Notes: generated by a model not told the origin, from the letters alone. A stretch of 64,000 nucleotides of DNA from an uncultured Myxococcales bacterium (GCA_964463485.1 CAYXDO010000014.1:34063-98062); one strand, 5' to 3'; counted from the stretch's first letter, positions 7,284-63,075 are shown. A program made the numbers and translations.

Positions 7284-7290
7284 TCGCGCC

Positions 7291-7326
7291 TGTTCGAACA
7301 GTGCCGCGCTTGTTCGAACAGTGCCG
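7291..7326. repeat. 16-bp direct microduplication tgttcgaacagtgccg x2 (7291-7306, 7311-7326) immediately outside the DR-L boundary
   Basis: Read directly from the sequence. Absent from the corresponding position after DR-R. Confidence 0.8.
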
Positions 7327-7372
7327 GGCCCCTTGTTCACTTTTCGGGAACAGTCGCCGGGGCCCCTTTTTT
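7323..7372 (+). terminator. Intrinsic-terminator-like GC hairpin (GGGCCCC ... GGGGCCC) followed by TTTTTT
   Basis: 7-bp all-GC stem 7326-7332 / 7359-7365, loop with an internal ttgttc/gaacag pairing, then cTTTTTT 7366-7372. No obvious plus-strand gene ends here, so the role is unclear. Confidence 0.3.
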
Positions 7373-7650
7373 GACTCTTGGTGCGAACCCTTCTGCTTGG
7401 CAGCCAGTGCTTGCACCGAGGATTCGAAGAGCGGAGCCCAGCCACGATCTTGGCTTCGGAGAATCAGTCGACTCACCGTCGGCTCCTCGCCTCCCGTGGG
7501 CAGCGGAGGGAGAGCGTCGTTTCGGACCTTCCTCGTGGTGCAGAGCATAATTAATAAGTAGGAGCATCCCGGTCGAGATCGATCTCGGCGACCCGAGCTC
7601 GGCCCGACTCGATCTCACCAGTGCCCGAGCTCGATCTCAAGCCGACGATA

Positions 7651-7680: not shown

Positions 7681-7745
7681 GGCGACGCTACTCATAACGA
7701 GTCGAATTCGACACATTAGTCGAGATCGAAGAAGGAGCACCCGAA

Positions 7746-9149
7746 ATGAACCCGGTCCCAATCGTTGCGTTGGTCGCCCTGATCCACGCTACCTCGCCCT
7801 CCCCCGCTACGTCCCCGCCTTTGATCGCTCGTCAGGAGTTTGACGGGAGTCGCCCGCTCGAAGCCAGAGCTCAGCTTGGTCCGAACCGAGGCCGCCTCGT
7901 GATCTCCGGCGGCCAGCTCGCACAAGTCCTCCCCGGACCCGGCATCCGCGAGCGCTTCTGCTTCGACGCGCTTCCCGGCGATCGGCACGCTGCCCTGCGG
8001 ATGAATCTCGCCAGCGGCGCCGCCGCGGAGTTGTTCATCCAATACGACGATCCGAGCTCTTTCGTCAGCGTCGTCGCTTTCGCGTCCGGCGCCGGTCGAA
8101 TCGTCACGCGCACCGCGGGCGGCGACACGATCGTCGCCAACTTCTCCACGGGCATCGTGCGGAACTTGTGGTCGCGAATGCGAGTCGAGGCCAGTCAGAT
8201 CGACCTCGGTAACTCCGAGATCCTGATCTCGATCGATGGCGCGCCGATCGCTTCCGCGGTGGTTCCGCGAGCGATTGAAGGGTCTGCGGTGTGTTATGGC
8301 GTGCGCGGACAAGCGCGCCTAGCGTGGACCGCGCTTTGGGGCTGTGCTGCGGGTGAGATGTTCACAGAAGCTTCGTGCCAGGCACGCGAAGCCAACAGGT
8401 GCGCCGACGGGGTGACCACGAGCTCCGAGGAGTGCGACGACGGCAACACCTCAGACGGTGACGGTTGCTCCGCTGTCTGCACGGCTGAGTTCTGCGGCGA
8501 CGCGCTCCTCTCCGGCGTCGAAGAGTGCGACGACGGCAACACCTCAGCCGGTGACGGTTGCTCCGCCGTCTGCACGATCGAGTCATGCGGTGACTCGATC
8601 CTCACGGGCACCGAAGAGTGCGACGACGGCAACACCGCAGGCGGTGACGGTTGCTCCTCCCTTTGCAGGATCGAGCCCACTGTCTTGTACTCTCAGCCCT
8701 TTGACGCTCCGAACTTCGTGGAAGGGATCGTGGGCTCGCAGGCGTTGTTCGACGGCGCTTCGTGGCTCGACATGGGCGGCGGATCGCAGCTCTACCACTC
8801 CAACTCGGGCCGACCGAGCTCAGGCTCCATGTCCGTTCGCAAGAGCTTCATCTCTTCGTGGTCCGGAGCCCTCGTCTACTCGATTCCGGCTCCGGCTCGG
8901 TCCGACGAAGTCCTTCGCGTTCGGTTCTGGATTTACAGCGCGCTCGGCTCGTTCGACCTCGGCGTGAACCGTGCCGGTGGTGCCACCGTCACTCGAACGA
9001 TTCCGATGGGCGGTTGGACGCTCGTCGACGCCCAGCTCTTGAGCAGCCTCGACACGAGTGAGGCCTACATTCTGTTGGGCGCCATGCCGCCTGACCCGTC
9101 TGGTTGGAGCGTGAAGGTCGACACGATCATCGTCGAGCTCACCCCGTAG
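7746..9149 (+). CDS. Secreted protein with three myxobacterial cysteine-rich repeats (TIGR02232-like: ECDDGNTxxGDGCSxxCxxExCGD)
   Basis: Three ~20-aa Cys-rich repeats (8390-8690 at DNA level, ~60-bp period). Hydrophobic N-terminus. RBS-like gaaggag upstream of the ATG. Confidence 0.7.
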   Translation: MNPVPIVALVALIHATSPSPATSPPLIARQEFDGSRPLEARAQLGPNRGRLVISGGQLAQVLPGPGIRERFCFDALPGDRHAALRMNLASGAAAELFIQYDDPSSFVSVVAFASGAGRIVTRTAGGDTIVANFSTGIVRNLWSRMRVEASQIDLGNSEILISIDGAPIASAVVPRAIEGSAVCYGVRGQARLAWTALWGCAAGEMFTEASCQAREANRCADGVTTSSEECDDGNTSDGDGCSAVCTAEFCGDALLSGVEECDDGNTSAGDGCSAVCTIESCGDSILTGTEECDDGNTAGGDGCSSLCRIEPTVLYSQPFDAPNFVEGIVGSQALFDGASWLDMGGGSQLYHSNSGRPSSGSMSVRKSFISSWSGALVYSIPAPARSDEVLRVRFWIYSALGSFDLGVNRAGGATVTRTIPMGGWTLVDAQLLSSLDTSEAYILLGAMPPDPSGWSVKVDTIIVELTP

Positions 9150-21315: not shown

Positions 21316-21392
21316 ATGTCGGACTCAAATGTCGGACTCAAATGTCGGACTCAAATGTCGGACTCAGATGTCGGACTCGGATGTCGGACTCC
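21316..21392. repeat. 13-bp tandem repeat atgtcggactcaa x ~6 (last units degenerate: ...cag, ...cgg, ...cc)
   Basis: Read directly from the sequence. Lies ~110 bp downstream (3') of the glmS stop / DR-R boundary, in an intergenic stretch. Confidence 0.85.
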
Positions 21393-24010: not shown

Positions 24011-24066
24011 GGGCGCGTCCTACTCGAAGCGGCGGCGAGCAGAAATCGTTCTCTAGGCGCCGAGTC

Positions 24067-33865: not shown

Positions 33866-33922
33866 TCCTTCTCTCGTCCGATCCCCGATCCACGAAGGAG
33901 CCTCTTCGGGTAGGGTGCCGCT

Positions 33923-36900
33923 GTGGCTCGGATCCTGGTGGTCGAGGACACCTCTGCGGTCCTCGCTCTGTACAAGGACGTCCTCGAAGAGCGAGGACAC
34001 GAGGTCGACACCGCCACCGACGGCGACACCGCCCTGCAGAAGCTCGAAAAAAAACCCGAGCTCCTCATCCTCGACCTTCACCTTCCAAAAGGCGGCTTCG
34101 AGCTCCTCGACAAGATCCGCGCCCAGTTCGGACGCGAGCTTCGCGTGATCGTCGTCAGCGGCGTGTACCGAGGCACCGTCCATCGCGAAGCCCTGACCAA
34201 AAAACACAAAATCGTCGCCTACCTCGATAAACCCATCGAGCTCGACACCTTCACCGCGAACGTCGACGCCGCGCTCGCCACCGAGAACCCCAAAGACCTC
34301 CCCTACGCCCCACTCTCCAGCCTGATTCTCCCCGGCGACAACCTCGCCGAACCCAGCAAGGCAAACCTTCGAGCCAAAGACTCCGCCTCGGATGGCGTGC
34401 GAGGCAGACTCGACGACGTCCCCTTCGCGCGGCTCCTCGGCAACCTATACGCGCGCCGCGCCGACGGCGCCTTGATGATGAAGAAAGGCACCGTCAAGAA
34501 AATCGTCTATTTGAAAGCTGGAACACCCATCTTCGTGCGCTCGAACCTCGTCCATGAGTGTCTCGGTCACGTGATGGTCCGCGAACGACTCATCGACGCG
34601 CGCGAGTGCGAGCTCAGCGTCGAGCGAATGCGCGCCGAGAAACGAAAACAAGGCGAGATCCTCATCGAAATGTCGGCCATTTCTGCGAAAAATCTCGAAT
34701 ACGCGCTCGAGCGACAAATGGAGATCAAACTCTTCGATCTCTTCGGGTGGACGGAAGGCCAATACCTCTTCAACGAACAGAAAGCTCAGCCTGGCGTCGA
34801 AATCCCGATGTCTTCGAGTGTCCTCGAAATCCTCACCGAAGGCATCCGGCGAGGCATGCCCGAGAGACGAATCCTGGCCGACATCGCCCGAATGAGTGAC
34901 GCCCCGCTGGCTCCACCGGACCCCGCAAGTCGCGAGAAGCTCCTCGATCACGAACCTCGATTCGAGCCGGTGTTGGCCAAAATCGATGACAAAAGATCCC
35001 TGCTCGCCCTAGCTCGCGAGCCCGAGTCAGGCGCGGTGTGGGCCGCGCTGTACGCAGCGGCCTGCCTGAATCTGCTCGGGCCCGCACAATCGAAGGTCCT
35101 CTCGGCAGAGCCGCCACCGCTCCGAACGAACGCGTCCCGCGCCGGGCTCGAAGCCGCGCGCACCAAAGCGAGAGAAGCCGCGGAAGCCAGCAAGGCGAGG
35201 ATCCCGAAGCTTCCCTCCGGCGCCCTCTCGAGTCCCGCTGGAATCGCCCCAGATCGCCCAACCGCTCCGGAGCCGGAGAGTATGATGGTGATCAGGGACG
35301 GACCGGTGACTCTCCCGCTCCCACGTCGACGGCGGCGCGCCACGCCCGAACCGCCGACCCGAGAGATCCAAGTCATCGAGCTCACGCCAGAGGACGCCGA
35401 GCCTCTGGAGGACGAAGACCTCGACGAGCTCGAAGCGGAGCTGATCGAGATTGGGCCTGACTCACGGTCGATCGTCGCTGACTCACCCCTGAAAAAGGAG
35501 AGAGTCGAGGTTGCCGAGCTCGCTGGCGACAAAGTCTCCGAGAACCCTTTTGCAGAGAGGGAAAAGCTGGCCGCAGAGAGAGCCGCCGTAGAGAGAGCCG
35601 CCGCAGAGAGAGCCGCCGCAGAGAGAGCCGCCGCAGAGAGAGCCGCCGCAGAGAGAGCCGCCGCAGAAAGAGCCGCCGCAGAGAAAGCCGTCGCGGAGAA
35701 GGAACGACTCGCCGCAGAGAGAGCCGTCGCGGAGAAGGAACGACTCGCCGCAGAGAAGGCCGTCGCGGAGAAAGAAAGGCTCGCCGCAGAAGAACTCGCC
35801 GCAGAAAAGGCCGCGGCGAAGAAAGAGAAGCTCGCTGCTGAAAAAGCCGCTGCGGACGAAGAGAAGCTCGCCGCGGAGAAAGCTGCCGCGGAGCGACTTG
35901 CCACGGAGAAAGCCGCCGCGGAGCGACTTGCCGCGGAGAAAGCTGCCGCGGCAAAAGCCGCGGTCGAGAAGGAGCGACTCGCCGCGGAGAAGGCCGACGC
36001 GGACAGAGTGGCGGCAGAGAAGCTGGAAGCTGAAAAAATCGCCGCAGAGAGAGAGAGACTTGCCGCGGAAAGAGCCGCTGCGGAGAGAATGGCGGTGGAG
36101 AAGCTCGCCGCGGAGCGACTCGTTGCGGAACGAGAAGAGCTCGCCGCCGACAAGGCCGCCGAAAAGCTCGCTGCGGAAAAGGCCGTTGCGGAAAGAGTGG
36201 CGGCGGAGAAGCTCGCCGCGGAGCGACTCGTCGCGGAACGAGAAAAACTCGCCGCCGAAAAGGCCGAAAGACTCGCTGCGGAAGAAAAGCTTGCCGCCGA
36301 AAGGGCCACCGCCGAGAAGCTCGCCGCCGAGAACGGCAGGCTTGTTGTCGGAAAGGCGGTCACCGAGAGAGAGAAGCTCGCGGCGCAGCGGCTCGCCGCG
36401 GAAAAGGCGATCGCCGAGCGCGGCAGACTCCTCACGGAGAGACTCCAGGCTGAAAAATCGGCCGCTCACCGCGACGCGTTCGACTCGGCGGAGCACGAAT
36501 CGAGCCTGGCCAACTCTCAACCTCCCGACGAGCCACCCCCGTGGGCACAACGCGGTCCTTTTGGAACGGCAGTCGACGTTCCAAGTCTGAGTCGAGACGG
36601 ACTCACGCCCCGCCGAATTCAGTTGCCTCAACCCATCGTCTCCGCGGTCTTGAGTCCGCTTCCGCCTGATTCGGCCCCGCTGGAGCAGCCCAAACCCAGC
36701 GTCCCGCCGAGCCTTCGCCCGCGCCCCTCGGCACCGCCGCCGGTCCGACCAAGTGTGCCCGCCCCCAAAGCCACGAGGGAACCAACCCCGGAGCCCGCTC
36801 GGAACCCGACCTTCGCGGCCTTGCTCGATCCCAGCACCACGGGACCCGCCGTCCGCCGCACCGAGCCGCCTCCTGCCCCGCGGGTCGACCTGCTCCGCCC

Positions 36901-38119
36901 CGAGCCGCGCTCCCTTCGGCTCGATGACGATGAGTACGTTCCGGTGTCTCGTCCCATTCCGAGGCCGCCCCCGCCCCCCCCGCCGGACGAGCCTTTTGAA
37001 GACGAACCCACGGACAACTCGGAGCGGTGGGCCGCTCAGGCGCTCTCGGCGAAGGCATCCGTCCCTGCGCAGGCTCGCGGAACGTCGCTGGCCGAGATCC
37101 CGACGGAGACTTCGGCGGTGGTCCCCGAACTCTCCACGTTGGGACCGGGAGAGGAGATGGCGATCCGAGCCGCGCGGCTGCTCTCTGCTCCGTTCGATGA
37201 GGAATTCAGCTCCGCGCCGACCGAAGAAATCCCCGCGCTGACTCGCCCCCCGCCGGAGCCGCTGCCGAGCGTTGACGTTCCCAACCTCGCCCCGTCTCGC
37301 ATCGAGGTACTACGGGACGGCGTTCCCGAGGAACGAACCCGCAGCGCGCGCGACCCCTCCCTCATCGCTCGGCCGCCTCCTCCGCCCGATGAGTCCATCC
37401 AGCCGGAGGTCGTGCGCCAAGACGAAATCAGCGCGCTGCGTGTGCGGCTCGAAGAGGCCCGGGCACGACTCAGGAACCGAAATCACTACGAGCGCCTGGG
37501 CCTGGATCGGTCCGCCACGAAGGCGGATGTTGAGCTGGCAGAAGAGTCGGTTCAACGTGCCTGGGTCGACGCGCTGCCTTCCGACGCTCCGTGGACACTC
37601 AGACTCCTCGCAGAAGAAGTCGGTGCGATGCTCGCCGAGTCGGCGCGGATTCTCGGAAACTCGGGAGCTCGTCGGGCCTACAATCGAACCCTCGACGGCC
37701 GCGCGCCCGCGCAGCGGCTCGCCCGATCGATCGCCGCGGAGAAGGCGTTCCAGGCGGCCGCGAGAATTCCAGACGAACCTGCCGCTCGAATCGAAGCGCT
37801 CCGCCACGCCGTCGAGCTCGATGGGCGCCAGGCGGCGTATCACGCCGGCCTCGCCGCCGCCCTCTTTGCGCAAGACCCAAAGTCGGAAGACGCCCGCGCG
37901 AGCCTCGCCCGAGCCCTCGAGTGGGACGGGAGCCACGAGCCCGCCATCGTGCTCGCCGCAAAAATGGCCGCCCAAAAAGGTGACCTCGATACCGCGAGGT
38001 CCAGATACGAAGCCGCCCTCCTCTCCGATCCCGACAACATCGTCGCACTCACCGGCCTGAGAGCGCTCGGAAAACCGGCTGAGAAAAAGAGCTTCCTGAA
38101 ACGGATCTCGGGAAGCTGA
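33923..38119 (+). CDS. Large REC-domain protein with DUF4388-like domain, ~300-aa Ala/Glu-rich coiled-coil repeat tract, Pro-rich segment, J-domain-like segment (no HPD) and C-terminal TPR (AglZ/FrzS-like architecture)
   Basis: N-terminal receiver (VVEDTSA...LILDLHLP...VIVVSG...LDKP). DUF4388-like block (LLGNLYARRADGALMMKKGTVKKIVYLKAGTPIFVRSNL...LGHVMV). AERAAAERAAAEKAVAEKERLAAE repeats (DNA 35570-36480, 18-bp period). NHYERLGLDRSATKADVELA J-like. TPR at the end. Confidence 0.75.
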   Translation: MARILVVEDTSAVLALYKDVLEERGHEVDTATDGDTALQKLEKKPELLILDLHLPKGGFELLDKIRAQFGRELRVIVVSGVYRGTVHREALTKKHKIVAYLDKPIELDTFTANVDAALATENPKDLPYAPLSSLILPGDNLAEPSKANLRAKDSASDGVRGRLDDVPFARLLGNLYARRADGALMMKKGTVKKIVYLKAGTPIFVRSNLVHECLGHVMVRERLIDARECELSVERMRAEKRKQGEILIEMSAISAKNLEYALERQMEIKLFDLFGWTEGQYLFNEQKAQPGVEIPMSSSVLEILTEGIRRGMPERRILADIARMSDAPLAPPDPASREKLLDHEPRFEPVLAKIDDKRSLLALAREPESGAVWAALYAAACLNLLGPAQSKVLSAEPPPLRTNASRAGLEAARTKAREAAEASKARIPKLPSGALSSPAGIAPDRPTAPEPESMMVIRDGPVTLPLPRRRRRATPEPPTREIQVIELTPEDAEPLEDEDLDELEAELIEIGPDSRSIVADSPLKKERVEVAELAGDKVSENPFAEREKLAAERAAVERAAAERAAAERAAAERAAAERAAAERAAAEKAVAEKERLAAERAVAEKERLAAEKAVAEKERLAAEELAAEKAAAKKEKLAAEKAAADEEKLAAEKAAAERLATEKAAAERLAAEKAAAAKAAVEKERLAAEKADADRVAAEKLEAEKIAAERERLAAERAAAERMAVEKLAAERLVAEREELAADKAAEKLAAEKAVAERVAAEKLAAERLVAEREKLAAEKAERLAAEEKLAAERATAEKLAAENGRLVVGKAVTEREKLAAQRLAAEKAIAERGRLLTERLQAEKSAAHRDAFDSAEHESSLANSQPPDEPPPWAQRGPFGTAVDVPSLSRDGLTPRRIQLPQPIVSAVLSPLPPDSAPLEQPKPSVPPSLRPRPSAPPPVRPSVPAPKATREPTPEPARNPTFAALLDPSTTGPAVRRTEPPPAPRVDLLRPEPRSLRLDDDEYVPVSRPIPRPPPPPPPDEPFEDEPTDNSERWAAQALSAKASVPAQARGTSLAEIPTETSAVVPELSTLGPGEEMAIRAARLLSAPFDEEFSSAPTEEIPALTRPPPEPLPSVDVPNLAPSRIEVLRDGVPEERTRSARDPSLIARPPPPPDESIQPEVVRQDEISALRVRLEEARARLRNRNHYERLGLDRSATKADVELAEESVQRAWVDALPSDAPWTLRLLAEEVGAMLAESARILGNSGARRAYNRTLDGRAPAQRLARSIAAEKAFQAAARIPDEPAARIEALRHAVELDGRQAAYHAGLAAALFAQDPKSEDARASLARALEWDGSHEPAIVLAAKMAAQKGDLDTARSRYEAALLSDPDNIVALTGLRALGKPAEKKSFLKRISGS

Positions 38120-47017: not shown

Positions 47018-49143
47018 AGGCCCACGGCCCAAATCGAAATCGCGACGTGGGCGACCAGCATCACGAACATGACGACGGAGACAGCGATGTGAAAAGCACG
47101 CCACTTCGCGAGCAGCTTCCGCACCGCGCCGAGGAACCGGACGCGCCGCTCGATCTTGGCGCGCTGTCCCATGAGCTCGATGGCGGTCTTTCGCAGCTTG
47201 GTGTCCTTCATCTCGCCGAGCAACCCGAAGCGGAGCGAAATCGCCGCCGAGATACTCTTGAGCTCGGTGGAGACGAGATAACCGAGGAAACCGATCGCAC
47301 CCATGTCGTCTTCTTCGCGAACCTCCTCGTTCTTCTCCTGAGCCTTGAGAAACTGCTGCAACACATTGGCGCTCATGGTCATGGACGACCATTGGTCCGC
47401 CGCCTTCTGAATGCCTTCGTCGAGCCGAGTCTTCGCGCGGTTCGCGGCAAACTCGGCCTTCGGCAGCGCCGTGTACAAATACCGACCCACCACTCCCGAG
47501 AGTAAGACCACCACTACGGCCCACCACAACCACACGACCCAGTACCAACTCAGGACGTGGAGGTTGGTGTGGAGGAGCGCCAGAGCGGGCCCCGCGAGAC
47601 CAAACACCACGTGAAAGTCGAACCACGTCCGCGACCCACCAATCCGCCGAAGACCCGGGACATGCAGGCGAAGCGTGTATAACGCGGAGACGATCATCAT
47701 GCCGCCTCCGATGTAACCCATCCAACGGCCCATGCCGAAGCCGGCCGTATATTTGAGGGTGAGCTTCGCCGCCGCGTCTGCTCCGGCTAAGAGCGCCACG
47801 AGCGGCTTGTAGATCGACAAGCCCGGAGAGAGCTTTCGCGCCCCGAACTCCCAGGCACAACCGAGCACGGCGAGCGCCGCCAGCGCAAACAACGTCCGCA
47901 TGAACGTGACGCCCTGCGCCGCCGCCACCTGTGAGTAGCCGACTTCGAAAGGCTTTGGATCGAAATACTTGGAGACTTGGTCGGCCTGCCCTCCGTCGCG
48001 CCTGAAGAGCTCGTTGGGATTGATCTGAATGATCGCTCCGGTCGGACAGGCGGTGATACACGCCATGTCTTCGTAACCCACGCAGTGGTCGCACTTGTTG
48101 GCGATTCGCTTGGGTTTCTTCTTCTCCTTCGGCTTCTCCTCGCCCTTGGCGATCACCGTCTTGGGTCGGTCGTCGCGGGCCGCTTTGACCTTGTCGACGA
48201 TGTCGATCTCTTCGGCGACGACGTCCACCATCCGAATCGCTTCATGCGGGCACGCCTTGGCGCATTTCGTACAACCCACGCAGTTGTCGTAGACGATGAC
48301 TTCGTGGTGTTCCGGCTCGAGCTCGATCGCGTCGAAGTTGCACTCGGGAATGCACCGCGCGTCCTCGCAAGTGCGACAATTGAGGGTGAATTGGATCAGG
48401 CCGAGGCTAGGCCCAAAGCGTTCGATGCGCGAGATGCCGTGGCGTTGCTCGCAGGCCATGACACACTCGTCGCAATCGATACACTTGTCGGTCTGGATGA
48501 CTTTGACGGCCTTGGCGTATTCGAGACCCTCGCGAACGAAGAAGTCGAGAATCTCTTGCCTATTCTCGAGCTTGAGGAAGGACTGTCGATAGTAGGACGA
48601 CTCGGCCCGTTTTTCGATCGCGGCGCGCGCGGTCGGGACCCTCGCGAGGATTTGATCGAGGTCCGCCTTTTGGATCTTGATGAGGACGACGGGGAGGCAG
48701 GTATAGAGTGCGACATCGTACTTGCGCCCGTCGCTCCCGCGCACATCGGGGACGTGATCGTTGGCGAAGAAGTCGCCCGGGTCGAAGAGGGCGATGTTCT
48801 TCTTCGTGAGTTGCATGACCGGCGGCGGTCGCTTCTTCGGCGAGGGGGGCGGCGGGACTTGGCCGCGTTCGAACTCGGCGAAGGCGACCTGGCCTTTGGA
48901 GAGAAAGTAGTAAGCGGGGACTTCGGCGCCGTCGTCGGCGCGCGGGAGCACTCGGTCTTGAGCGAGGGTGACGAGGGTGGAGACGGCGGCAATTTCGCGC
49001 CGCTCGACGACGGTCAGGTCGCGAAAGGCGTCGAGTTTCTGGAGCTCGGCGTCGACGTCGACGTCCGACTTCGGACTCGCGTCGCGCTTCTCGGTCGCCT
49101 TCTTGCCTTCCGGCTTCTCTTTCTTCTCCAACGCACTCATCAT
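47014..49143 (-). CDS. Membrane protein with N-terminal cNMP-binding-like domain, three to four 4Fe-4S ferredoxin-type Cys clusters and C-terminal polytopic membrane domain
   Basis: CIDCDECVMAC, CRTCEDARCIPEC, CVGCTKCAKACP, CDHCVGYEDMACITACP. 6+ TM helices in the C-terminal half. ATGA overlap with the upstream TPR gene at 49140-49143. Confidence 0.75.
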   Translation of the reverse strand: MMSALEKKEKPEGKKATEKRDASPKSDVDVDAELQKLDAFRDLTVVERREIAAVSTLVTLAQDRVLPRADDGAEVPAYYFLSKGQVAFAEFERGQVPPPPSPKKRPPPVMQLTKKNIALFDPGDFFANDHVPDVRGSDGRKYDVALYTCLPVVLIKIQKADLDQILARVPTARAAIEKRAESSYYRQSFLKLENRQEILDFFVREGLEYAKAVKVIQTDKCIDCDECVMACEQRHGISRIERFGPSLGLIQFTLNCRTCEDARCIPECNFDAIELEPEHHEVIVYDNCVGCTKCAKACPHEAIRMVDVVAEEIDIVDKVKAARDDRPKTVIAKGEEKPKEKKKPKRIANKCDHCVGYEDMACITACPTGAIIQINPNELFRRDGGQADQVSKYFDPKPFEVGYSQVAAAQGVTFMRTLFALAALAVLGCAWEFGARKLSPGLSIYKPLVALLAGADAAAKLTLKYTAGFGMGRWMGYIGGGMMIVSALYTLRLHVPGLRRIGGSRTWFDFHVVFGLAGPALALLHTNLHVLSWYWVVWLWWAVVVVLLSGVVGRYLYTALPKAEFAANRAKTRLDEGIQKAADQWSSMTMSANVLQQFLKAQEKNEEVREEDDMGAIGFLGYLVSTELKSISAAISLRFGLLGEMKDTKLRKTAIELMGQRAKIERRVRFLGAVRKLLAKWRAFHIAVSVVMFVMLVAHVAISIWAVGL

Positions 49144-52100
49144 CGACCGCGCAGGAGCTTCTGAGCTTCCTTCGCCAAATCACCGTCAGGACGGGCCTTT
49201 CGAAAGAGCTCGAGCTCCTTTTGACCCTGCCGTTTGGTTTTTGGCTGTTTGATCAGATGCCGCCCGAGGTAGAAATGGGCCTCGTCGGGGGCGTCGTCGT
49301 GCGTGAGAGCGGCCTCCAGCATCGCAACGCCTCGTTTGGCGTCTTCTTCGAGCACGATGCGACCGAGGTAATAGAGGTCGACGCCGGATCTTTCGTCTTT
49401 AGCGCCCTTCTTCGGCGGCGTCCCGAGGCTCTTGTTCAGCTTGAGCGCGGACGTGTACCGGTTGAGTGCGGCCTCATAGTCCTTTTGAGCATGCTCCACC
49501 GAGCCGAGCTCGAGGAGCGTTTGAGTATCACTGCCAGAGACGTCGGCGATTCGAGAGAGCGCGTCCTTGGCACCACGGTCGTCTCCGCGCTCCTTTCGGA
49601 GCTTGGCGAGGAGCTTGAGCGCCTTGGGAATGAGTTGGTTCGACTCGAGGATGGGCTCGAGCGCAGCGAGCGCTTCGATCGGTTTGTTCTTGGCCGCCAA
49701 GATCTGAGCGAGCCCGAAGCGAGCATCGACGGAGGTCGGGTCGGCGGCGATCGCCGCTTCGAAGGCGGAGCGAGCGTCCTCCGGTTTTTGGGAAGCCAGC
49801 ATGACTTGACCGAGCTCGGCATCCCAAGCCGGGTCCTTCTCGAGCTTCCGCGCTTGTTCGACGAGCCCGAGCGCCTCTTCGACTCGGCCCGCCATGCGGG
49901 CGCGGCGAGAAAGCTCGGCAAAATTGGCGGCCTCGAGCGCGTCTTCGAGCTTCTCCGAGCTCATCAACTTCGAGGTGATCGGGGGAAAGGCGCCCGTTCG
50001 CGGAGTCACCGCGACGAGCGCAAACGTGCCGGGCGTGAGGCGCACGGAGCCATACGGGAGCTCGACTTGGCCGAGTCCGTCGGTCCTCGAGTCACCTTTC
50101 CAGTCAGAGTCGAGCTTCGCGGCCACGCCGAAGCGGGCGCGAGCAAGACCGACCTGAATTTCTGGACTCTTTGGGTCGAGCTTCGCCGCCGCCTCGTACA
50201 GCTCGACGGCGCGGTCCCAACCTCCGGCCGCCAGATACAAATCGGCGACCACAGTCTTGAAGGCCGCGCTGCTCGCGTACGCTGCCTCGGCCCTCCCAAG
50301 CTGCTCGATGGCTCCCTCTCGGTCTCCGCGGGAGAAGTCGGCCACCGCAAACAAGAGCGCACCGCGCCCCGCTTCGTCCTTGGCGACTTCCTTTCTCTCC
50401 TCCTTGAGCAGCCCAAACAAGATGGCCTGAGTCTGCACGGCCTCCGGGTCCTTGCCTGAGCTCTGCCCGAGAGTGTATCGCTCGAGCGCCGCCTGCACGT
50501 CGTGCGGCCTCTTCGACAGGATCTCACCGTAATATCGAAACGCGGCGTCGAGATTTCCGTTTCTCGCGTGCCAACGCGCGAGCTCCAGCAAAGTCTCTCT
50601 GCGAGCAGGGTGGAGCGCCCGCGCTTCGTGCAACGCCGCGAGCGCCGCCTTCTCGTCGCCGAGCTTGACCGCCATACGCGCCTTCTGCAGCAGCGCTTTG
50701 GGACTGCCAGGGAAACGAACGAGCGCGGCGTCTACCTCGCGCTTTGCGATCTCCAAACCCTTGGCTCCGGAGCTCGTGATCGCCATGGCCGCGACGGCCT
50801 CCACGGTCGGCGTGGTCGCGCTCAGCGAGCCCAGCGCGGATTTGGCTCGAAGCAGAGCGTCTGCGCTCTGACCGAACTCCAGCCACTCCCTGGCGGCAAT
50901 CTCCGCACGCGCCGCAGTGAGTACGCTCCTCAAGTCCGGGTAGCTTCCGATCAGCGCGTCGAGCGCTTCGTCGGCCGACAGGAGCGAGGCAAGGCTGGCG
51001 TCTTCGAGGTCGTGACCCAGGTTGCGAAGCTCCTCTTCGGCGTCGTTGACTCCGGCCGGAGCCCGCCGGGACATCGCCACGTACCCACCCCAGGCAGAGA
51101 GTCCGCCCACGACCATTACCGTGCCCCACCAGGTCAGGCGGCCCATACCCTTGCCGGTCCGGACGACCATGACTTCGCGGCGCCCACCGGCCTCGGCTCG
51201 GCCTGCTTCTTTGTCCTTCTCCCTAGCCTTGGGCTTGGGCTCGTCGACCGACGGGTCCTTCTTGGCCGTCGGTTTGTCCCCGCCATACAGCGCCCAAATG
51301 GCCTCGTCCACCATCTGAGTTGCCGGGCGCTCCTCACTCGGACGCTTGGGATCTGGCTTGAGTTTGGGCTTTTCTTCGTCGGCCTTGCCTGCCTTCGGCT
51401 CCGGAGACTTCTCCGGCTTCGCAGCCTTCTCCGGCTTGAGTGGCTTCTCCGTTTTTTCAGGCTTCTCGGGCTTCTCTGATTTGTCCGGCTTCTCCGATTT
51501 ATCCTGCTTTTCTGACTTCTCGGGCTTCTCGAATTTTTCCGCTTTTTCGTGCTTTTCGGCTCTTTCGTCGCCCTTCGGTGCGACGCCTTCGGCCGCTTTC
51601 GCTGCTTCCTCCGCCTTTTTGGCCTTGGCCGCTTTGGCTGCGGCGATCCGGGCCTCCCGCTGAGCGGCCTTGTCGTCGGCAGGCGCCGCACCAGCCTCCC
51701 GCACTTCATCCGCGGCCTTCTCTGGTTTGGCTTCAGGCGGAGGTTTGGTCGGAGCCTCGTCAGGCGGCGGCGCCGGGGGCGGAACAGATCGGCGAGACTC
51801 GGACTTGGGCGGCTCGGCGGCGTTCGACACGGGCGGCGGCGGCGGCATCGAGCTGGGCTTCGAAGACGCAACGGGCCTCGACGATGGCGCGGAAGGCGCT
51901 TTCTTCGGGTCGGAGCGCTCCACGCGGGTCGGCTGATTCTCCTTGGGCGGCTCCGGAGGTTCAGGAAGGCCCGCCGGCATCGAAAGCTCAGCAGACACTG
52001 CAATGCCCTCCGTGAGCGGCTCCGGCTCGGACACCGGCGTGTCGAAGAGCGGGCTCACGATGCGGCTGTAATCCGCGGCGCTCCCACCCACCTTGGGAGG

Positions 52101-52814
52101 CGGGGGCTTGGAGGGGGCCTGCTTCTTGCCGTCGAACAACAAATTGCGGACGTCGTAGGTCGTCCGATCAAGCGGCTCTAGGGGCTCCGCTGGCTCACCA
52201 AGCCCTTCCAGCTGCCGAGAAAGCAGATCTGGCTTGGGCGAAGGCGAAGGGCCGCCGGAGCCAGCGAAAACGGTCGCCTCCTCCCCGCCAGCCAAGAACT
52301 CCGTGGCGCCATCGTCGGTCGCGGTCCACGGGCTCGCCCCCTGAGGTACGTCTTCGCCACGCATGACCGGCAACTCCACCGGCTTCTCGGCCTCCGCCAA
52401 GCGCTTGGCACGCTTCAAGAGGTCCGCGTACTCACGAGACTCCGGCTCGAGCCGCACCGCTTGCCCGAGGAATTGTATGGCCCGCTTGGCCATACCCTTC
52501 TGCAACAGCAGCGAACCCATCAACGCGAGCGCCTGCGGATTGTCTTGATCTACAATCAGCGCTTCTTTGATCTGCTCCAACGCTTCGCGGAATCGGCCTC
52601 GGCCCGACTCCGCCACCGCCAACGCAAGGCGCCCTCCTACCGAGCTTGGGTGAAAATTGAGCCCCCTGCGCGCGATCTCCGCCGCGCGCTCATGACTTGC
52701 CTGCCGGTTGTATTCCTCCGCGAGGGTGATGAACACCAACGAGCGGGGATTTGCTTCGAGCTCTGCCTCGTACGCCGTGATCCTGCGCCGGTCCTTGTCG
52801 TCGGGCTCCGCCAA
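49140..52814 (-). CDS. Large TPR-repeat protein with central Lys/Glu/Pro-rich low-complexity tract (EKPEKSEKQDKSEKPDKSEKPEKPEKTEKP) and one TM segment
   Basis: Multiple TPR-like helical pairs at both ends, a TM helix after the charged tract (LTWWGTVMVVGGLSAWGGYVAM). First gene of a three-gene coupled operon. Confidence 0.75.
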   Translation of the reverse strand: MAEPDDKDRRRITAYEAELEANPRSLVFITLAEEYNRQASHERAAEIARRGLNFHPSSVGGRLALAVAESGRGRFREALEQIKEALIVDQDNPQALALMGSLLLQKGMAKRAIQFLGQAVRLEPESREYADLLKRAKRLAEAEKPVELPVMRGEDVPQGASPWTATDDGATEFLAGGEEATVFAGSGGPSPSPKPDLLSRQLEGLGEPAEPLEPLDRTTYDVRNLLFDGKKQAPSKPPPPKVGGSAADYSRIVSPLFDTPVSEPEPLTEGIAVSAELSMPAGLPEPPEPPKENQPTRVERSDPKKAPSAPSSRPVASSKPSSMPPPPPVSNAAEPPKSESRRSVPPPAPPPDEAPTKPPPEAKPEKAADEVREAGAAPADDKAAQREARIAAAKAAKAKKAEEAAKAAEGVAPKGDERAEKHEKAEKFEKPEKSEKQDKSEKPDKSEKPEKPEKTEKPLKPEKAAKPEKSPEPKAGKADEEKPKLKPDPKRPSEERPATQMVDEAIWALYGGDKPTAKKDPSVDEPKPKAREKDKEAGRAEAGGRREVMVVRTGKGMGRLTWWGTVMVVGGLSAWGGYVAMSRRAPAGVNDAEEELRNLGHDLEDASLASLLSADEALDALIGSYPDLRSVLTAARAEIAAREWLEFGQSADALLRAKSALGSLSATTPTVEAVAAMAITSSGAKGLEIAKREVDAALVRFPGSPKALLQKARMAVKLGDEKAALAALHEARALHPARRETLLELARWHARNGNLDAAFRYYGEILSKRPHDVQAALERYTLGQSSGKDPEAVQTQAILFGLLKEERKEVAKDEAGRGALLFAVADFSRGDREGAIEQLGRAEAAYASSAAFKTVVADLYLAAGGWDRAVELYEAAAKLDPKSPEIQVGLARARFGVAAKLDSDWKGDSRTDGLGQVELPYGSVRLTPGTFALVAVTPRTGAFPPITSKLMSSEKLEDALEAANFAELSRRARMAGRVEEALGLVEQARKLEKDPAWDAELGQVMLASQKPEDARSAFEAAIAADPTSVDARFGLAQILAAKNKPIEALAALEPILESNQLIPKALKLLAKLRKERGDDRGAKDALSRIADVSGSDTQTLLELGSVEHAQKDYEAALNRYTSALKLNKSLGTPPKKGAKDERSGVDLYYLGRIVLEEDAKRGVAMLEAALTHDDAPDEAHFYLGRHLIKQPKTKRQGQKELELFRKARPDGDLAKEAQKLLRGR

Positions 52815-52866
52815 GCCGGGCTGATGCTAGCCGGCCCCACGAGAGGAGGAAAGTGTTCGGTCGCTT

Positions 52867-55719
52867 TTGGGCCGAAGGCTCGAGGAGCGCGGGATTCTGA
52901 CCACGGGCGTTTCAACCGGGTCGAGCTGCGGCGTTGGCGAGAATCACGGGAAGCTTGCTCGGTCGCACCCGTCCGTGGTTTCGGTGCCCATGGTGTACGA
53001 CAGAGGCCGCGGCGGGCAGCGGGATGGACGAAGCGGCGGAGCGCGCGGCACCGGCGGAGGACGCGGACGCTCCTTCGGAGACGCACGCCCCGGCGCTCGC
53101 GGCCCGGGGCTCAAACCTCGGTCCGATCGGCGATTCGAAGGACGCGGAGAGCGGAGCTTCGATCGAGAACGCCCCGCTCGCACCTTCTCGGGGAGCCGAG
53201 ATGAACGAAGCTCCGACCGACCCCGACGCTCGTTCGACGAGCGCGGCGATCGCCCAGACCGCGGACGACGACCTTTCGAAGACCGCCGCGAAGACCGCGG
53301 AAGACGGCCCTTTGAAGACCGTGGACGACGGCCCTTCGAGAACCGCGGTCGGTCCGAAGATCGACGATCATTTGGGGATCGAGGGCAACGAGCGTTCGGC
53401 GATCGGGGGCAGCGGCCGTTCGAAGACCGCGGACGACCCTTCGAAGATCGCGGGCGTAGGTCCTTTGAAGATCGGGGACGACGGCCCTTCGAAGATCGGG
53501 GACGACGACCCTTCGAAGATCGGGGACGACGGCCCTTCGAAGATCGGGGACGACGGCCCTTCGAAGATCGTGGGCGCAGGCCCTTCGAAGATCGTGGGCG
53601 CAGGTCCTTCGAAGATCGGGGACGACGGTCTCTTGGCTCCACCGATCGCGGCCGCTCGTTCGAAAATCGCGGTCAGCGTAGGTTCGACGACCGCGGCCCG
53701 CGCAGGTCCGAAGACCGGGGCTTCGGCGGCGCGCGCTCCTTCGACCGCGGACGCTCCTTCGACCGCCAAGATCGATACCGAGACCGTCCGAGCCAAGACC
53801 GACCTCGAGACTCGAGAGAGCTCGAAAGTCGGCCCGATCGGCCCGATCGCAAAAGCTCGAGCGACGCGCGCGGAGGCTCGCGAGAGCTCGTCGGGGTCGA
53901 TGAATCGAAGCTCGACAGCCAATTCGAAGCCTGGAACGAGGCCGAAGACGAAGATGACTTCGACCCGGCCTGGGACGACGCGGAAGACGACGCCTTCGAT
54001 GACGCGGGCGACGAGGAAGACGGCGCCGCTGAGGACGTCGCAGGTGACGAGTCCGACGTACGTGATGAGTCCGACGTGGGTAATGAGTCCGGCGGAGGTG
54101 ATGAGTCCGGCGGAGGTGATGAGTCCGATGTAGGTGATGAGTCCGACGCAGATGAATCCGACGTGGACGAAGAGTCCGACCTAGGTGACGAGTCCGACGT
54201 AAGTGATGGGTCCGACGTAGGTGATGGGTCCGACGTAGGTGATGAGTCCGACGTAGGTGATGAGTCCGACGCAGATGAATCCGACGTGGACGAAGAGTCC
54301 GAGGCCGTTGATGGAGACGTCGAGTCCCGTCAAGACGACGGGTCCGTGGCCGTCAAGCCCAACGTCGGAGACACCTCCAGAGTGCCCGATGAATCGGCCG
54401 CCCGTGGTGAGGCCCAAGAGGCCCAACGATCCGAAGCAGCGGCCGCGGAGTCCGAGGAAGAGGATGCCGAGGCGCCCTTCGATCAAGGGGACGATCTCGA
54501 GCCGGCCGGAGAGTCACGGTCGCGGCCGAGCGCAGGTTTTGGCCCGCGGATCGTAGAGAAGCGCGGCGCCTCGCTTCTGCTTCGTCGCGGCCGCATCCGA
54601 GCGTACTCACACCCGTGGATCTTCCGCGGAGACGTCGAGGAGGTCGGGGTCCCCGAGGGACCCGTCCGGATCATCGACGGGCTGGGGCGTTTCGTCGGCC
54701 GTGGCTTCATGAACGCCCACACCTCGCTCTGTTGTCGCATCCTCTCGCGAGAGGACGTACCGATCGACGAACGCTTCTTTGCCGCTCGGATCGCCGGCGC
54801 GCGGGCGCGACGCCTTTCGATCGACCGCGAGGCCTACAGGCTCGTGTTCAGCGAGGGGGACGGACTTCCTGGGTTGATCGCGGATCGGTACGGATCCGTG
54901 TTGGTCATTCAGTGTCTGACTCTCGGAATGTCGAGGCTTCGACCTCTGATCGTATCGGCGCTTCGGAGTGAGCTCGGAGAGTTGGCCGTGTTCTCGGCCG
55001 ACGATCCGCACTCGGCCGAGCTCGAAGGGTTCACGCCGGTCCGAGGTTGGTTCGACAAAGAGGGTCCGGCGTCGCTCGTCATCGACGAGAACGGAGTGAA
55101 ATCGACGGTTCGGTTTGGAGTCGGCCACAAGACCGGCCTCTACCTCGACCAAGCCGAGAACCGTGTTCGGATCGCGAAGCTCGCCGAGGGTCGCAGAGTT
55201 CTGGACGCGTTTTCGTATGCGGGCGGGTTCGCGATTCAAGCGGCGAAGCGAGGCGCCGCCAGCGTAGTCAGCGTCGACTCCTCCCCCGACGCGATCTCCC
55301 TGCAGAAAGCCAACCTGGAGCTCAACGGGCTGACGGGGGAAGTTCAGCTCGTCGAAGCCAACGCGTTCGACGAGCTACGGCGTCGGGAGCGCAGCCGAGA
55401 GAAGTTCGGATTGGTCGTCCTCGACCCACCTCCGTTCGCTCCGAGCCGTCGGAGCCTCGAGTCCGCCGCGCGAGGGTACAAAGAGGTAAATCTGCGCGCC
55501 ATGCGGTTGCTCGATCGCGGTGGCCTGCTAGCTACGTTCACTTGCTCTCACCATGCCTCGGACGCCTTCCTCGAAGACGTCTGTCGGGAGGCCGCCGCAG
55601 ACGCGCGCTGCTCGTTCCGAGTTCGCGAGCGGCTCGACCAACCGTCCGACCACCCCGTCGATCTGGCCGTGCCCGAGTCGCGATATCTTCGGGGACTGCT
55701 CTTAGAAGTCGTCGACTGA
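52867..55719 (+). CDS. RlmI/RlmK-like class I SAM-dependent rRNA (m5C) methyltransferase (PUA-like + MTase) with a ~650-aa N-terminal disordered extension: RG-rich FEDRGRRP tandem repeats followed by acidic DESDVG repeats
   Basis: C-terminal ~390 aa. IVEKRGASLLLRRGRIRAYSHPWIFRGDVE (PUA/RlmI N-terminus), VLDAFSYAGGFAIQAA (motif I), VVLDPPPFA (motif IV DPP). DNA repeats of 24 bp (53400-53640) and 18 bp (54040-54300). Start uncertain (52867 or ATG 52990). Confidence 0.75.
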   Translation: MGRRLEERGILTTGVSTGSSCGVGENHGKLARSHPSVVSVPMVYDRGRGGQRDGRSGGARGTGGGRGRSFGDARPGARGPGLKPRSDRRFEGRGERSFDRERPARTFSGSRDERSSDRPRRSFDERGDRPDRGRRPFEDRREDRGRRPFEDRGRRPFENRGRSEDRRSFGDRGQRAFGDRGQRPFEDRGRPFEDRGRRSFEDRGRRPFEDRGRRPFEDRGRRPFEDRGRRPFEDRGRRPFEDRGRRSFEDRGRRSLGSTDRGRSFENRGQRRFDDRGPRRSEDRGFGGARSFDRGRSFDRQDRYRDRPSQDRPRDSRELESRPDRPDRKSSSDARGGSRELVGVDESKLDSQFEAWNEAEDEDDFDPAWDDAEDDAFDDAGDEEDGAAEDVAGDESDVRDESDVGNESGGGDESGGGDESDVGDESDADESDVDEESDLGDESDVSDGSDVGDGSDVGDESDVGDESDADESDVDEESEAVDGDVESRQDDGSVAVKPNVGDTSRVPDESAARGEAQEAQRSEAAAAESEEEDAEAPFDQGDDLEPAGESRSRPSAGFGPRIVEKRGASLLLRRGRIRAYSHPWIFRGDVEEVGVPEGPVRIIDGLGRFVGRGFMNAHTSLCCRILSREDVPIDERFFAARIAGARARRLSIDREAYRLVFSEGDGLPGLIADRYGSVLVIQCLTLGMSRLRPLIVSALRSELGELAVFSADDPHSAELEGFTPVRGWFDKEGPASLVIDENGVKSTVRFGVGHKTGLYLDQAENRVRIAKLAEGRRVLDAFSYAGGFAIQAAKRGAASVVSVDSSPDAISLQKANLELNGLTGEVQLVEANAFDELRRRERSREKFGLVVLDPPPFAPSRRSLESAARGYKEVNLRAMRLLDRGGLLATFTCSHHASDAFLEDVCREAAADARCSFRVRERLDQPSDHPVDLAVPESRYLRGLLLEVVD

Positions 55720-55727
55720 CAGACTCC

Positions 55728-56747
55728 TCAGGCCTTCCGCATCGCCGCGACCATTTTCTGAATTCGCCCGGGCATTCGATGGTGGTGACCCGAGTGCCTG
55801 CCTGGGTACTCCTCAACCACCGGCTCGACCCCTAGAGCGCGAAGCTTCCTGCCGAGCTGGCGGTGACCCAGGCACAGGCCATACTCGTCGTCCGTCCCCG
55901 CCTCGAGGTGAATGAGACGGAGAGATTGGAGCGCGTCCACGTGGCGATCGACCATGTGAATCGGATCCCACGCCAAAAAACGCTCGAACACGGCCGGAAT
56001 CAAAGCACCCGTGTCGAGATCGAAATACACGTCTCCGAGGAGCGGCGGGGCCCCCACGTTGGGCGCGAAGCAGGGACACATGGAGAGATTCAACATCGCG
56101 GCCTCGTCCCCGCGGCCGGCGAGCGCCCGTGGATTCGGGCTGCCCAGCCAACGCTCGAGAAAGGAATTCACCCCGCCGGCTCGGCGAATCGCCCCGACCG
56201 TGATCGGGAGGGTATGAGTATACAGGTATTCATACCAGGAGTCTCCGGCAGAGCTCATGACACACGAAAAACGATCGGACCGTAACATACCCAACACGAG
56301 CGCACCGAAGCCCCCGCTCGAGTGACCCAGCACTCCCCGAAATTTGCGATCCCGATGAGTATGAAAGCGCCCGTCGACGAACTCGACGAGCTCGTCCGCC
56401 ACGTAGTCCATGTGGGGGCCATGGGCCGGAGAATTGACGTACTGGCTCGCGCCGAGCTTGGTCGTCCCGTCTGGAAAGACCACGATGGCCTTGTCCTCCT
56501 CGCGAGCCATGACTCGATCGAGCGCGTCGGCGAGGGCGGGAGCAAATATTCCAGGGTCGTTCAAGTACCCCGCGCCGCGCCCCGACCAACCCGCCAGCAG
56601 GAACACCACCGGATAAGGCTCCTTGCGGGCTTCGTCATATCGCGGCGGAACATACACCGGCAAGCGCCGAACGTGAGGATCCCCCATGAGATTGCCGAGC
56701 AGGAGCTGACTCTCGTGCTCGAACACGCGGACGTCAGGCAGAGCCAC
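55728..56747 (-). CDS. Esterase-family alpha/beta hydrolase (enterochelin-esterase/esterase-D-like)
   Basis: GHSSGGFGA nucleophile elbow, overall esterase-like order of motifs. Confidence 0.7.
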   Translation of the reverse strand: MALPDVRVFEHESQLLLGNLMGDPHVRRLPVYVPPRYDEARKEPYPVVFLLAGWSGRGAGYLNDPGIFAPALADALDRVMAREEDKAIVVFPDGTTKLGASQYVNSPAHGPHMDYVADELVEFVDGRFHTHRDRKFRGVLGHSSGGFGALVLGMLRSDRFSCVMSSAGDSWYEYLYTHTLPITVGAIRRAGGVNSFLERWLGSPNPRALAGRGDEAAMLNLSMCPCFAPNVGAPPLLGDVYFDLDTGALIPAVFERFLAWDPIHMVDRHVDALQSLRLIHLEAGTDDEYGLCLGHRQLGRKLRALGVEPVVEEYPGRHSGHHHRMPGRIQKMVAAMRKA

Positions 56748-62730: not shown

Positions 62731-62830
62731 GACCCATTCATGATGGCCTCCTGTTTTGTACTCTGACGGAGCGCGTTTGGAGAAGGGTCATCCGTTCGAC
62801 ATCGAACGGTCACGAAACAGTCACAACCGT

Positions 62831-62914
62831 CGGATCGTCTGCCTCGGATCGTCTGCCTCGGATCGCCTGCCTCGGATCGCCTGCCTCGGATCGCCTGCCT
62901 CGGATCGCCTGCCT
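62831..62914. repeat. 14-bp tandem repeat cggatcgyctgcct x6 in the divergent intergenic region between the vWA-HK operon and the flavoprotein gene
   Basis: Read directly from the sequence. Two units have t, four have c at position 8. Lies 100-185 bp upstream of the vWA start. Confidence 0.85.
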
Positions 62915-63075
62915 CAGGAGTATCGACCCGAAATGCACGCCGCGTACATGCGAGCCCGTGTGGACTTCGAGACGCCGATCGCGCACTTGTTTCTGGTGGA
63001 TGCCACGGCCCGCTTTCAGAGCATCGAAGGGACCGCGGGCCTGCAATTGTTCGCCCGTCCGAACGGAGCGCGTGG

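Follow-up and report, generated by a model that had tools for sequence, protein, structure and literature searches.

The stretch of DNA analysed here, hereafter the window, comprises 64,000 nucleotides (nt) from an uncultured Myxococcales bacterium (GCA_964463485.1, CAYXDO010000014.1:34063-98062). An open reading frame (ORF) on its plus strand, 52867..55719, runs without interruption for 950 codons counted from its first TTG, and the same frame measures 962 codons from stop to stop (from 52831). The best explanation of this locus as a whole, which we hold to be fairly probable, is that it is one gene encoding a protein of ~909 amino acids (aa), in which a core of the RlmI family of 23S rRNA methyltransferases carries a disordered di-block tail. 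Judged by comparison of repeat copies and of two genomes, the tail is translated and its amino acid sequence is under purifying selection. A preliminary description of the locus had given the ORF coordinates, the 24-bp and 18-bp repeat periods and the identity of the core correctly. Its figure of ~650 aa for the tail was too high: the tail measures 563 aa from the TTG and ~522 aa from ATG 52990, the most probable start codon. Residues are numbered below from the TTG, and all features of the gene lie on the plus strand.

Organization of the tail

From the N-terminus the order is basic block, linker, acidic block and core, and all of the ORF upstream of the C-terminal ~387 aa is of low complexity. 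No stop codon and no frameshift lies between the tail and the core. Arginine is strongly preferred over lysine in the tail as a whole (R:K = 101:4).

The basic block (aa 42-337, 296 aa; 52990..53877) has a net charge of +33 and a pI of 11.6. It is composed of R (31%), G (16%), D (13%), S (8%), F (8%), E (8%) and P (7%), so that D and E together make up 21%, with a charged fraction of 0.52 and a grand average of hydropathy of -2.17. It encodes 28 RG dipeptides and 24 Phe at a spacing of ~8 aa, but only 2 RGG; the tail had been described as RG-rich and compared with RG/RGG tracts, and this block is better called an RG/Phe polyampholyte than a pure RGG box. Its centre is a 24-bp array of ~9 near-perfect FEDRGRR[PS] units (aa 185-255, 53419..53631), delimited by Tandem Repeats Finder (TRF) and a codon table of the units. 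TRF reports this array at 53401-53628 with 9.6 copies and 83% matches, flanked by degenerate 24-bp arrays at 53289-53348, 53377-53422 and 53661-53721. The ~25 FEDRGRRP units previously placed within 53400-53640 are thus too many for that interval, which holds ~10 near-perfect FEDRGRR[PS] units; a number of that order requires a count of every degenerate, Phe-anchored unit in 53074-53760, which gives 24.

The basic block is followed by a non-repetitive acidic Trp/Phe linker of 35 aa, SRELVGVDESKLDSQFEAWNEAEDEDDFDPAWDDA (aa 338-372, 53878..53982), containing two Trp and three Phe. The acidic block (aa 373-548, 176 aa; 53983..54510) has a net charge of -68 and is made up largely of D (24%), E (18%), G (13%) and S (12%), with an Ala/Glu-rich end that leads into the PUA domain. 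It contains an 18-bp array of ~14 DESDVG-type units with one-codon register shifts (54042..54312), for which TRF gives 12.9 copies at 54042-54271 with 83% matches, in addition to a 123-bp higher-order duplication with 90% matches. In a Nei-Gojobori comparison the register shifts put fixed 18-bp slices of this array out of register.

The whole tail is predicted to be disordered. An AlphaFold2 model built from a 46-sequence alignment has a predicted local distance difference test score (pLDDT) below 50 for residues 1-524 of the product and a confident core. Secondary structure is modelled at two places of the tail only, as a helix of low confidence over ESKLDSQFEAWNE (residues 305-317), which gives the linker a weak predicted helical propensity, and as another helix in the Ala/Glu stretch. 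The charges of the tail are segregated, with a kappa of 0.217 against 0.165 +/- 0.020 for shuffled sequences. Within the basic block of the window alone they are well mixed (kappa 0.078 against 0.165 +/- 0.027 for shuffles).

Translation of the repeats

An open frame is by itself weak evidence of translation, since chance open frames are common in G+C-rich DNA. Two other frames are also open across the repeats of the window, and long open upstream frames without repeats were found at L003, L012 and L023 (unrelated loci, 260-475 codons). The pattern of substitution is more informative. When eight successive 24-bp copies (53440-53631) are compared in the ORF frame, 85 of the differences are synonymous and 15 nonsynonymous, a ratio of nonsynonymous to synonymous differences per site (pN/pS) of 0.07; in the other five frames the ratio is at least 0.24. 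The copies alternate between TTC and TTT, GAC and GAT, CGN and AGG, and GGA and GGG. The FEDRGRR[PS] peptide has thus been kept while the underlying DNA has drifted, indicating selection at the protein level.

The only close relative of the gene is found in a deltaproteobacterial metagenome-assembled genome (GCA_016183035.1, JACPFK010000128; L001), with 82% identity in the core. Between the two genomes, substitutions in codons 1-36 are spread flatly over the three codon positions [16,14,16] with a dN/dS of 0.79, and an excess at third positions starts at about codon 42. From there dN/dS is 0.30 for aa 42-100, 0.25 for the RG repeats, 0.06 for the linker, 0.35 for the acidic block, 0.19 for the segment preceding the core and 0.11 for the catalytic core, all values being from a single genome pair and a protein-guided alignment of low-complexity sequence, in which dN is biased downward in gapped repeats. 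This bias is absent from the ungapped N-terminal and linker blocks and from the comparison of copies within the array. Frame controls in the ungapped blocks gave 0.38 in the ORF frame against 2.1 and 0.98, and for the linker 0.17 against 1.7 and 2.8. Even the acidic block, the least conserved part with 34% identity, has a third-position excess [36,54,74]. The earlier proposal that the repeats are in frame and translated together with the core is therefore borne out by a synonymous excess specific to the ORF frame.

Two antisense ORFs over the repeats, 52944..53642 and 53368..53922, were considered as genes and rejected: their frames have a pN/pS of at least 0.24, and the counterpart in L001 runs through the conserved methyltransferase core.

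Position of the start codon

The flat distribution of substitutions upstream of codon 37 places the start near GTG 52975 or ATG 52990. Translation most probably starts at ATG 52990, alternatively at GTG 52975, as far as two aligned genomes can indicate. The ATG is conserved as ATG in L001, and the GTG, five codons upstream, is conserved too. From the ATG both products share an N-terminus, MVFERGRGGRRDGR in the window and MVYDRGRGGQRDGR in L001, that fits MV[YF][DE]RGRGG. The most probable coding sequence is accordingly 52990..55719, 909 aa plus the stop codon. The ~37 nt directly 5' of the ATG (52953..52989) are also conserved, probably as a 5' leader or promoter-proximal DNA, and similarity is lost further upstream. 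Downstream there is no in-frame ATG, GTG or TTG between aa 43 and 404 or between aa 506 and 615.

The first TTG (52867) was rejected as the true start, given that codons 1-36 are without a coding signature and that only 52 nt would be left to the divergent gene. Close to it, an AGGAGG at 52844-52849 is followed after 3 nt by GTG 52853, where a 15-codon ORF begins in a frame other than that of the methyltransferase. A typical start would need a longer distance, and 52844-52900 aligns weakly with L001. A simple promoter and terminator scan of 52500-56000 found nothing, and an Rfam scan of the whole window gave no match.

The catalytic core

Judged by its sequence, the C-terminal 387 aa (aa 564-950, 54556..55716) are a conventional 23S rRNA 5-methylcytosine (m5C) methyltransferase of the RlmI family (COG1092), with PUA-like, central and class I S-adenosylmethionine-dependent methyltransferase domains. 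Matches in Pfam, NCBIfam and the PDB all uphold the earlier assignment of an RlmI-like PUA and methyltransferase core. The PUA-like domain (aa 582-628, 54610-54750) matches Pfam PUA_3 (PF17785; E 1.7e-8, 34.5 bits, cut-off 22.6), and the methyltransferase domain (aa 731-930, 55057-55656) matches Methyltrans_SAM (PF10672; 5e-20). RlmI-type models of NCBIfam match aa 564-949 (NF053718, 1.4e-91; PRK15128, 7.3e-71), and the related models RSP_2647 (204) and Rlm_2499C5 (190) match the core as well. The first two scores, 307 bits against 575 for NF053718 and 239 against 712 for PRK15128, are below the equivalog cut-offs at which specificity for C1962 would be assigned. Membership of the family is secure; the equivalent of C1962 is the probable target.

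Among solved structures, the core aligns over its full length with Thermus TTHA1280 (1wxw_A, 7e-73), and with E. coli RlmI/YccW (3c0k_A, 1.5e-70) over query residues 11-388 and chain residues 5-394. Motif IV of the core, DPPPFA, aligns with DPPAFA and DPPKFV of the structures, and TFTCSHH aligns with ASCSHH and FSCSG, so that the Cys of the (S/T)CS motif, which we take to be the m5C nucleophile, is kept. Residues D812, P813, P814, F816, C852 and S853 are the same in every sequence of the 46-sequence alignment, and the pLDDT of the core is mostly above 85.

Properties kept while the repeat units turn over

The two genomes encode tails of the same design with different repeats. In the basic block the 8-aa FEDRGRRP unit of the window is replaced in L001 by a 15-aa unit, RRSFGDRDRGSGGGG (45-bp period), and in the acidic block the 6-aa DESDVG by an 8-aa ADDEADEP (24-bp period). 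The blocks also differ in length, 296 against 337 aa for the basic and 176 against 126 aa for the acidic block. Net charge is nevertheless close to constant, at +33 in the window and +36 in L001 for the basic block and at -80 and -73 for the linker and acidic block together. Likewise, the number of Phe (24 against 25) and the charge segregation of the whole tail (a kappa of 0.223 in L001) are nearly the same, and the basic block of L001 has 24 RG and 7 RGG. Charge, Phe number and block order were thus kept though the units turned over, which points to selection on composition and patterning.

The linker stands apart from the repeats. It is near-identical in both genomes (ELVGVDESxLDSxFEAWNEAxDEDxFDPAWDD, 83% identity) and is more constrained than any other segment of the protein. 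As read from the two sequences, selection acts on composition, patterning and block order, and in addition on the exact sequence of the N-terminus and of the linker.

The gene of L001 is annotated as a 558-aa protein (P0005) beginning at an internal GTG, with the frame open far upstream. Signals of selection at L001:8978-11677 indicate a product of ~899 aa instead. A 240-aa antisense gene has been called over the RG repeats on the minus strand (L001:9251-9973); it has no Pfam match and is probably spurious. A (TCGGAA) microsatellite of 24.7 copies with 95% matches (L001:8726-8872) lies ~100 nt upstream of the methyltransferase start, and the window has nothing comparable to it.

Distribution and origin of the tail

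A search with the core did not retrieve the window's own protein from the searched protein collection. With the full-length protein as query, whose low-complexity words dominated, a word-indexed search gave 4 matches. The relatives detected among contigs of species representatives had at most 58% identity and lacked a repeat tail. In metagenome scans, the linker motifs yielded nothing confirmed and the core motifs one distant fragment. A word search with the tail only gave 5 matches without domains. F[EG]DRGR repeats are also found on unrelated bacterial proteins. An exhaustive HMMER search with aa 42-372 gave 142 matches, all of them to the repeat part; none covers the N-terminus or the linker, which indicates that the tail as a unit is absent from collections of predicted proteins. 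For the linker, the metagenome motif scan and the HMMER search gave no match outside L001.

Among 64 proteins with similar repeats are 3 DEAD-box helicases, 3 S4 and pseudouridine synthase proteins, 1 S1/CvfB protein and 1 RRM protein. Enzymes and binders of RNA are the only coherent functional group, the rest being heterogeneous. The same kind of fusion is found in four proteins. P0001, of metagenomic origin, is an RlmI-family protein with 33% core identity and a ~330-aa N-terminal tail of FDRDDRPRKS repeats. P0002-P0004, from spirochaetes, are stand-alone RlmK-like 23S rRNA methyltransferases in which the tail is C-terminal and consists of an acidic block and then FDxDRPRR repeats (FDNDRPRGDRPFDRDRPPRR). 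In all four an acidic segment separates the core from the basic repeats. From these sequences we conclude that other 23S rRNA methyltransferases acquired analogous tails independently.

The tail itself originated, by the evidence of its repeats, through local tandem duplication and not by transfer from eukaryotes. Horizontal origin from eukaryotes was considered and rejected, as the repeats are local DNA repeats whose units differ between the two genomes and the core is bacterial. Local repeats, together with HMMER matches confined to the repeat region of heterogeneous proteins, also argue against common descent with the glycine- and arginine-rich (GAR) domains of eukaryotes. The tail had been called eukaryote-like, and this holds in the sense of convergence but not of descent.

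That such tails are easily missed is illustrated by the present case: the tail is invisible in public protein collections, its close homologue being annotated from an internal GTG with an antisense gene over the repeats. Long repeat-encoded disordered extensions of housekeeping enzymes are accordingly being cut short in a systematic way when G+C-rich genomes are annotated.

Alternative explanations

A number of observations weigh against a single gene with a selected, RNA-directed tail. The start codon is deduced from two genomes only, and no Shine-Dalgarno sequence at usable spacing and, in a simple scan, no sigma-70-like promoter was found upstream of 52975 and 52990. The limits of the dN/dS estimates given above belong here too. 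The repeats also differ from the core, the only comparator used for codon usage, in having a lower G+C content at third codon positions (GC3) and other codon choices, favouring GAA (83%) and GAT (53%) against 21% and 16% in the core. Of the 120 best homologues of the core, 119 are tail-less proteins of 369-413 aa, and RNA-related proteins are a minority, ~8 of 64, among the carriers of similar repeats. With regard to function, the net charge of the whole tail, -45, disfavours RNA binding unless the blocks act separately, and the low kappa calculated for the basic block argues against strong self-coacervation by that block alone.

It is improbable that the tail is translated but neutral, a by-product of slippage in a repeat-prone G+C-rich genome. 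Such an origin would fit the near absence of tails among homologues, the turnover of units between the two genomes and the presence of coding tandem repeats in other proteins of the window (35570-36331 and 51415-51546), and the atypical codon usage of the repeats fits a recent expansion of a founder unit. Neutrality is however difficult to reconcile with a pN/pS of 0.07 among copies that are old, having a pS of 0.47, or with the constancy of net charge, Phe number and block order across the turnover. The linker, more constrained than the catalytic core, and the independent occurrence of an acidic segment with basic repeats on other 23S rRNA methyltransferases speak against it as well.

We give a similarly low probability to a reading in which function resides mainly in the acidic block. 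This block would then be an electrostatic chaperone or a sink for basic ribosomal proteins, or would mimic nucleic acid, and the RG block would only neutralise it. The acidic part has the larger charge (-80 against +33), it adjoins the catalytic core in all independent examples, and conservation is highest in the acidic Trp/Phe linker. The acidic block itself is on the other hand the least conserved part in sequence (34% identity, dN/dS 0.35), and selection on the RG units is strong.

Very improbable, in our view, is that the repeat region escapes translation, being a 5' leader or intergenic repeat DNA, and that the enzyme is translated from an internal GTG of the acidic region (aa 404-506). 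In-frame GTGs are available there at 54076, 54163, 54286, 54346 and 54382, and the annotated start of the 558-aa P0005 is of this kind; chance open frames in G+C-rich DNA, the lower GC3 of the repeats and the lack of a Shine-Dalgarno sequence before the upstream start would also be accounted for. The GTG annotated for P0005 is however GTC, a non-start codon, in the window, MV[YF][DE]RGRGG is conserved at the ATG, and the 85:15 ratio of synonymous to nonsynonymous differences is confined to the ORF frame. The third-position excess and dN/dS values of 0.06-0.35 along the tail, against 0.79 upstream of codon 37, are likewise those of coding sequence. The preliminary description had itself raised two ways in which the tail could be separated from the enzyme. 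A start at the PUA domain is contradicted by the lack of in-frame start codons in aa 506-615 and by selection on the tail, and a frameshift between tail and core by a frame that is continuous in both genomes. An additional, shorter isoform could be made from an internal GTG.

The earlier idea of a natural contingency locus, in which units would often be gained and lost in frame and the length of the tail thereby tuned within populations, is not supported and is the least probable of all: the periods of both arrays are multiples of 3, a few central 24-bp units are identical in DNA, the 123-bp duplication is 90% identical and the block lengths differ between the genomes (296 against 337 and 176 against 126 aa), but the arrays are only 83% matched, a pS of 0.47 between copies, near the 0.65 between genomes, implies that the RG array is old and homogenised slowly, 24-bp and 18-bp periods within coding sequence give no on/off switching, and bulk properties such as charge and Phe number are constant and not varied.

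Neighbouring genes and other repeats

The linker holds two Trp-acidic motifs, EAWNE and PAWDD (53878-53982). Motifs of this W-acidic type are bound by the TPR domains of kinesin light chain. The divergent neighbour of the methyltransferase gene (49140-52814, minus strand) encodes a 1224-aa TPR protein, and TPR genes lie directly upstream of the P0001 gene (L038:1-4965); L001 is without a TPR neighbour. TPR genes being common, their presence near the tailed genes may be a coincidence.

The same TPR protein (ORF 49140..52814, minus strand) contains a repeat-encoded low-complexity block, KPEKSEKPDKSEKPEKPEK, at 51415-51546 with 27-, 36- and 45-bp periods. Dense coding tandem repeats with 15-, 30- and 108-bp periods are also found at 35570-36331 in an ORF of 1401 aa (33914..38119, plus strand). 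Expansion of coding repeats seems to be a habit of the source genome.

The tetranucleotide GATC is over-represented in the window (537 observed, 211 expected), and in the basic blocks it occurs 19 times in the window and 27 times in L001 (8978-9988), against 2.5 expected in each. The excess in the repeats derives from Asp-Arg codon pairs (GAT-CGN).

Two further arrays of the window are near-perfect and have unit lengths not divisible by three: a 13-bp unit of 5.8 copies (96%) between ORFs at 21316-21391, and a 14-bp unit, TCGGATCGCCTGCC, of 6.1 copies (98%) at 62830-62915 inside long open frames of both strands. A 93-bp repeat of 2.7 copies with 86% matches lies at 8425-8675 within ORF 7698..9149 (plus strand). 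Its DNA consensus looks like a putative Cys-rich unit of the CDDGN...DGDGC type, and the L001 contig has one gene with a faint DUF4215 match. The long ORFs at 5232-7463 and 21503-24019 (both minus strand) have shadow ORFs with the same statistics of length and composition, pointing to duplication of a gene or element inside the window.

Possible role and comparison with known systems

Purta and colleagues reportedly found in 2008 that E. coli RlmI acts on protein-free 23S rRNA, i.e. early in assembly. In a possible mechanism for the tailed enzyme, the Arg/Phe block would bind rRNA in a multivalent, sequence-independent manner and thereby raise the local concentration of the enzyme on nascent, protein-poor pre-50S RNA. 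Alternatively, the tail might partition the enzyme into an RNA-rich assembly of ribosome biogenesis. Competition of the acidic block with RNA for the basic block, be it intramolecular or intermolecular, would keep the enzyme soluble, limit indiscriminate binding of nucleic acids and allow release. The Trp/Phe-acidic motif could dock specifically with a partner or with the core. RNA tethering or partitioning into condensates is plausible, resting on composition, predicted disorder and analogy with RhlE, CsdA and fibrillarin. A bolder reading, which we regard as doubtful, is that this lineage and, independently of it, some spirochaetes and other bacteria have built rRNA-modification enzymes resembling fibrillarin and nucleolin, with the di-block tail as scaffold or client of a nucleolus-like condensate and the Trp/Phe motif recruiting a partner. 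If this were true, a nucleolar type of molecular grammar would have evolved convergently on rRNA-modifying enzymes of bacteria, where condensates of ribosome biogenesis have only recently been proposed (CsdA, E. coli).

Two aspects make the gene of wider interest. The two genomes have replaced the repeat unit and kept charge, Phe number and block order, which clearly exemplifies selection for composition and patterning more than for sequence. The tailed methyltransferase is moreover a simple natural test case, in which the full-length enzyme can be compared with a tail-deleted one, and the RlmI-like and RlmK-like counterparts strengthen it. The question raised is whether disordered tails target bacterial rRNA-modifying enzymes to nascent rRNA, as the GAR domain reportedly does for fibrillarin.

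The nearest known enzymes are E. coli RlmI (3c0k) and Thermus TTHA1280 (1wxw), which have the domain architecture and the DPPxF and (S/T)CS motifs in common with the core of the window. They are 380-400 aa long and without an extension, whereas the window protein has ~520 additional N-terminal residues. A literature search found no description of a bacterial rRNA methyltransferase with such a tail. Closest in design are P0001-P0004, in which a 23S rRNA methyltransferase core is likewise fused to an R/D/P/F repeat tail with an acidic segment between them. They differ from the window protein in having other repeat units, no Trp/Phe linker and independent origins, and P0002-P0004 also in belonging to a different methyltransferase subfamily and in carrying their tails at the C-terminus.

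The C-terminal domain of RNase E in alpha-proteobacteria, the scaffold of BR-bodies, is also a disordered region of blocked or alternating charges on an RNA enzyme. Enzyme and sequence are different, and the RNase E domain has many short alternating charge blocks, where the tail described here has two large ones.

Disordered Arg-rich extensions on an RNA enzyme core are also found in RhlE1 and RhlE2 of P. aeruginosa and in CsdA/DeaD of E. coli, and DEAD-box proteins carry repeats similar to those of the window. In RhlE helicases the Arg-rich intrinsically disordered regions (IDRs) strengthen binding and unwinding of RNA and promote phase separation (PMC11260450). CsdA, through its C-terminal IDR, drives formation of a nucleolus-like condensate at rrn loci in E. 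coli, and this condensate recruits biogenesis factors (bioRxiv 10.64898/2026.09.17.752289). RhlE and CsdA belong to another catalytic family and have a C-terminal IDR, whereas the tail of the window protein is N-terminal, much longer and strictly repetitive and includes a large acidic block.

Among eukaryotic proteins, nucleolar proteins of the nucleolin/Nopp140 type combine acidic tracts with RG as the tail does. In fibrillarin an rRNA methyltransferase is preceded by a GAR domain, in which Phe residues space the RG repeats (PMC9957100, PMC7194090). The window protein resembles it in part, as an rRNA methyltransferase with N-terminal disordered Arg/Gly repeats spaced by Phe. The catalytic folds belong to different families without homology, and the basic tail is ~300 aa long in the window against ~80 aa in fibrillarin. 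Unlike canonical GAR domains, the basic block of the window is rich in D and E, and it has only 2 RGG. Fibrillarin is furthermore guided by snoRNAs, whereas the enzyme of the window is stand-alone and methylation of its Arg residues is not expected.

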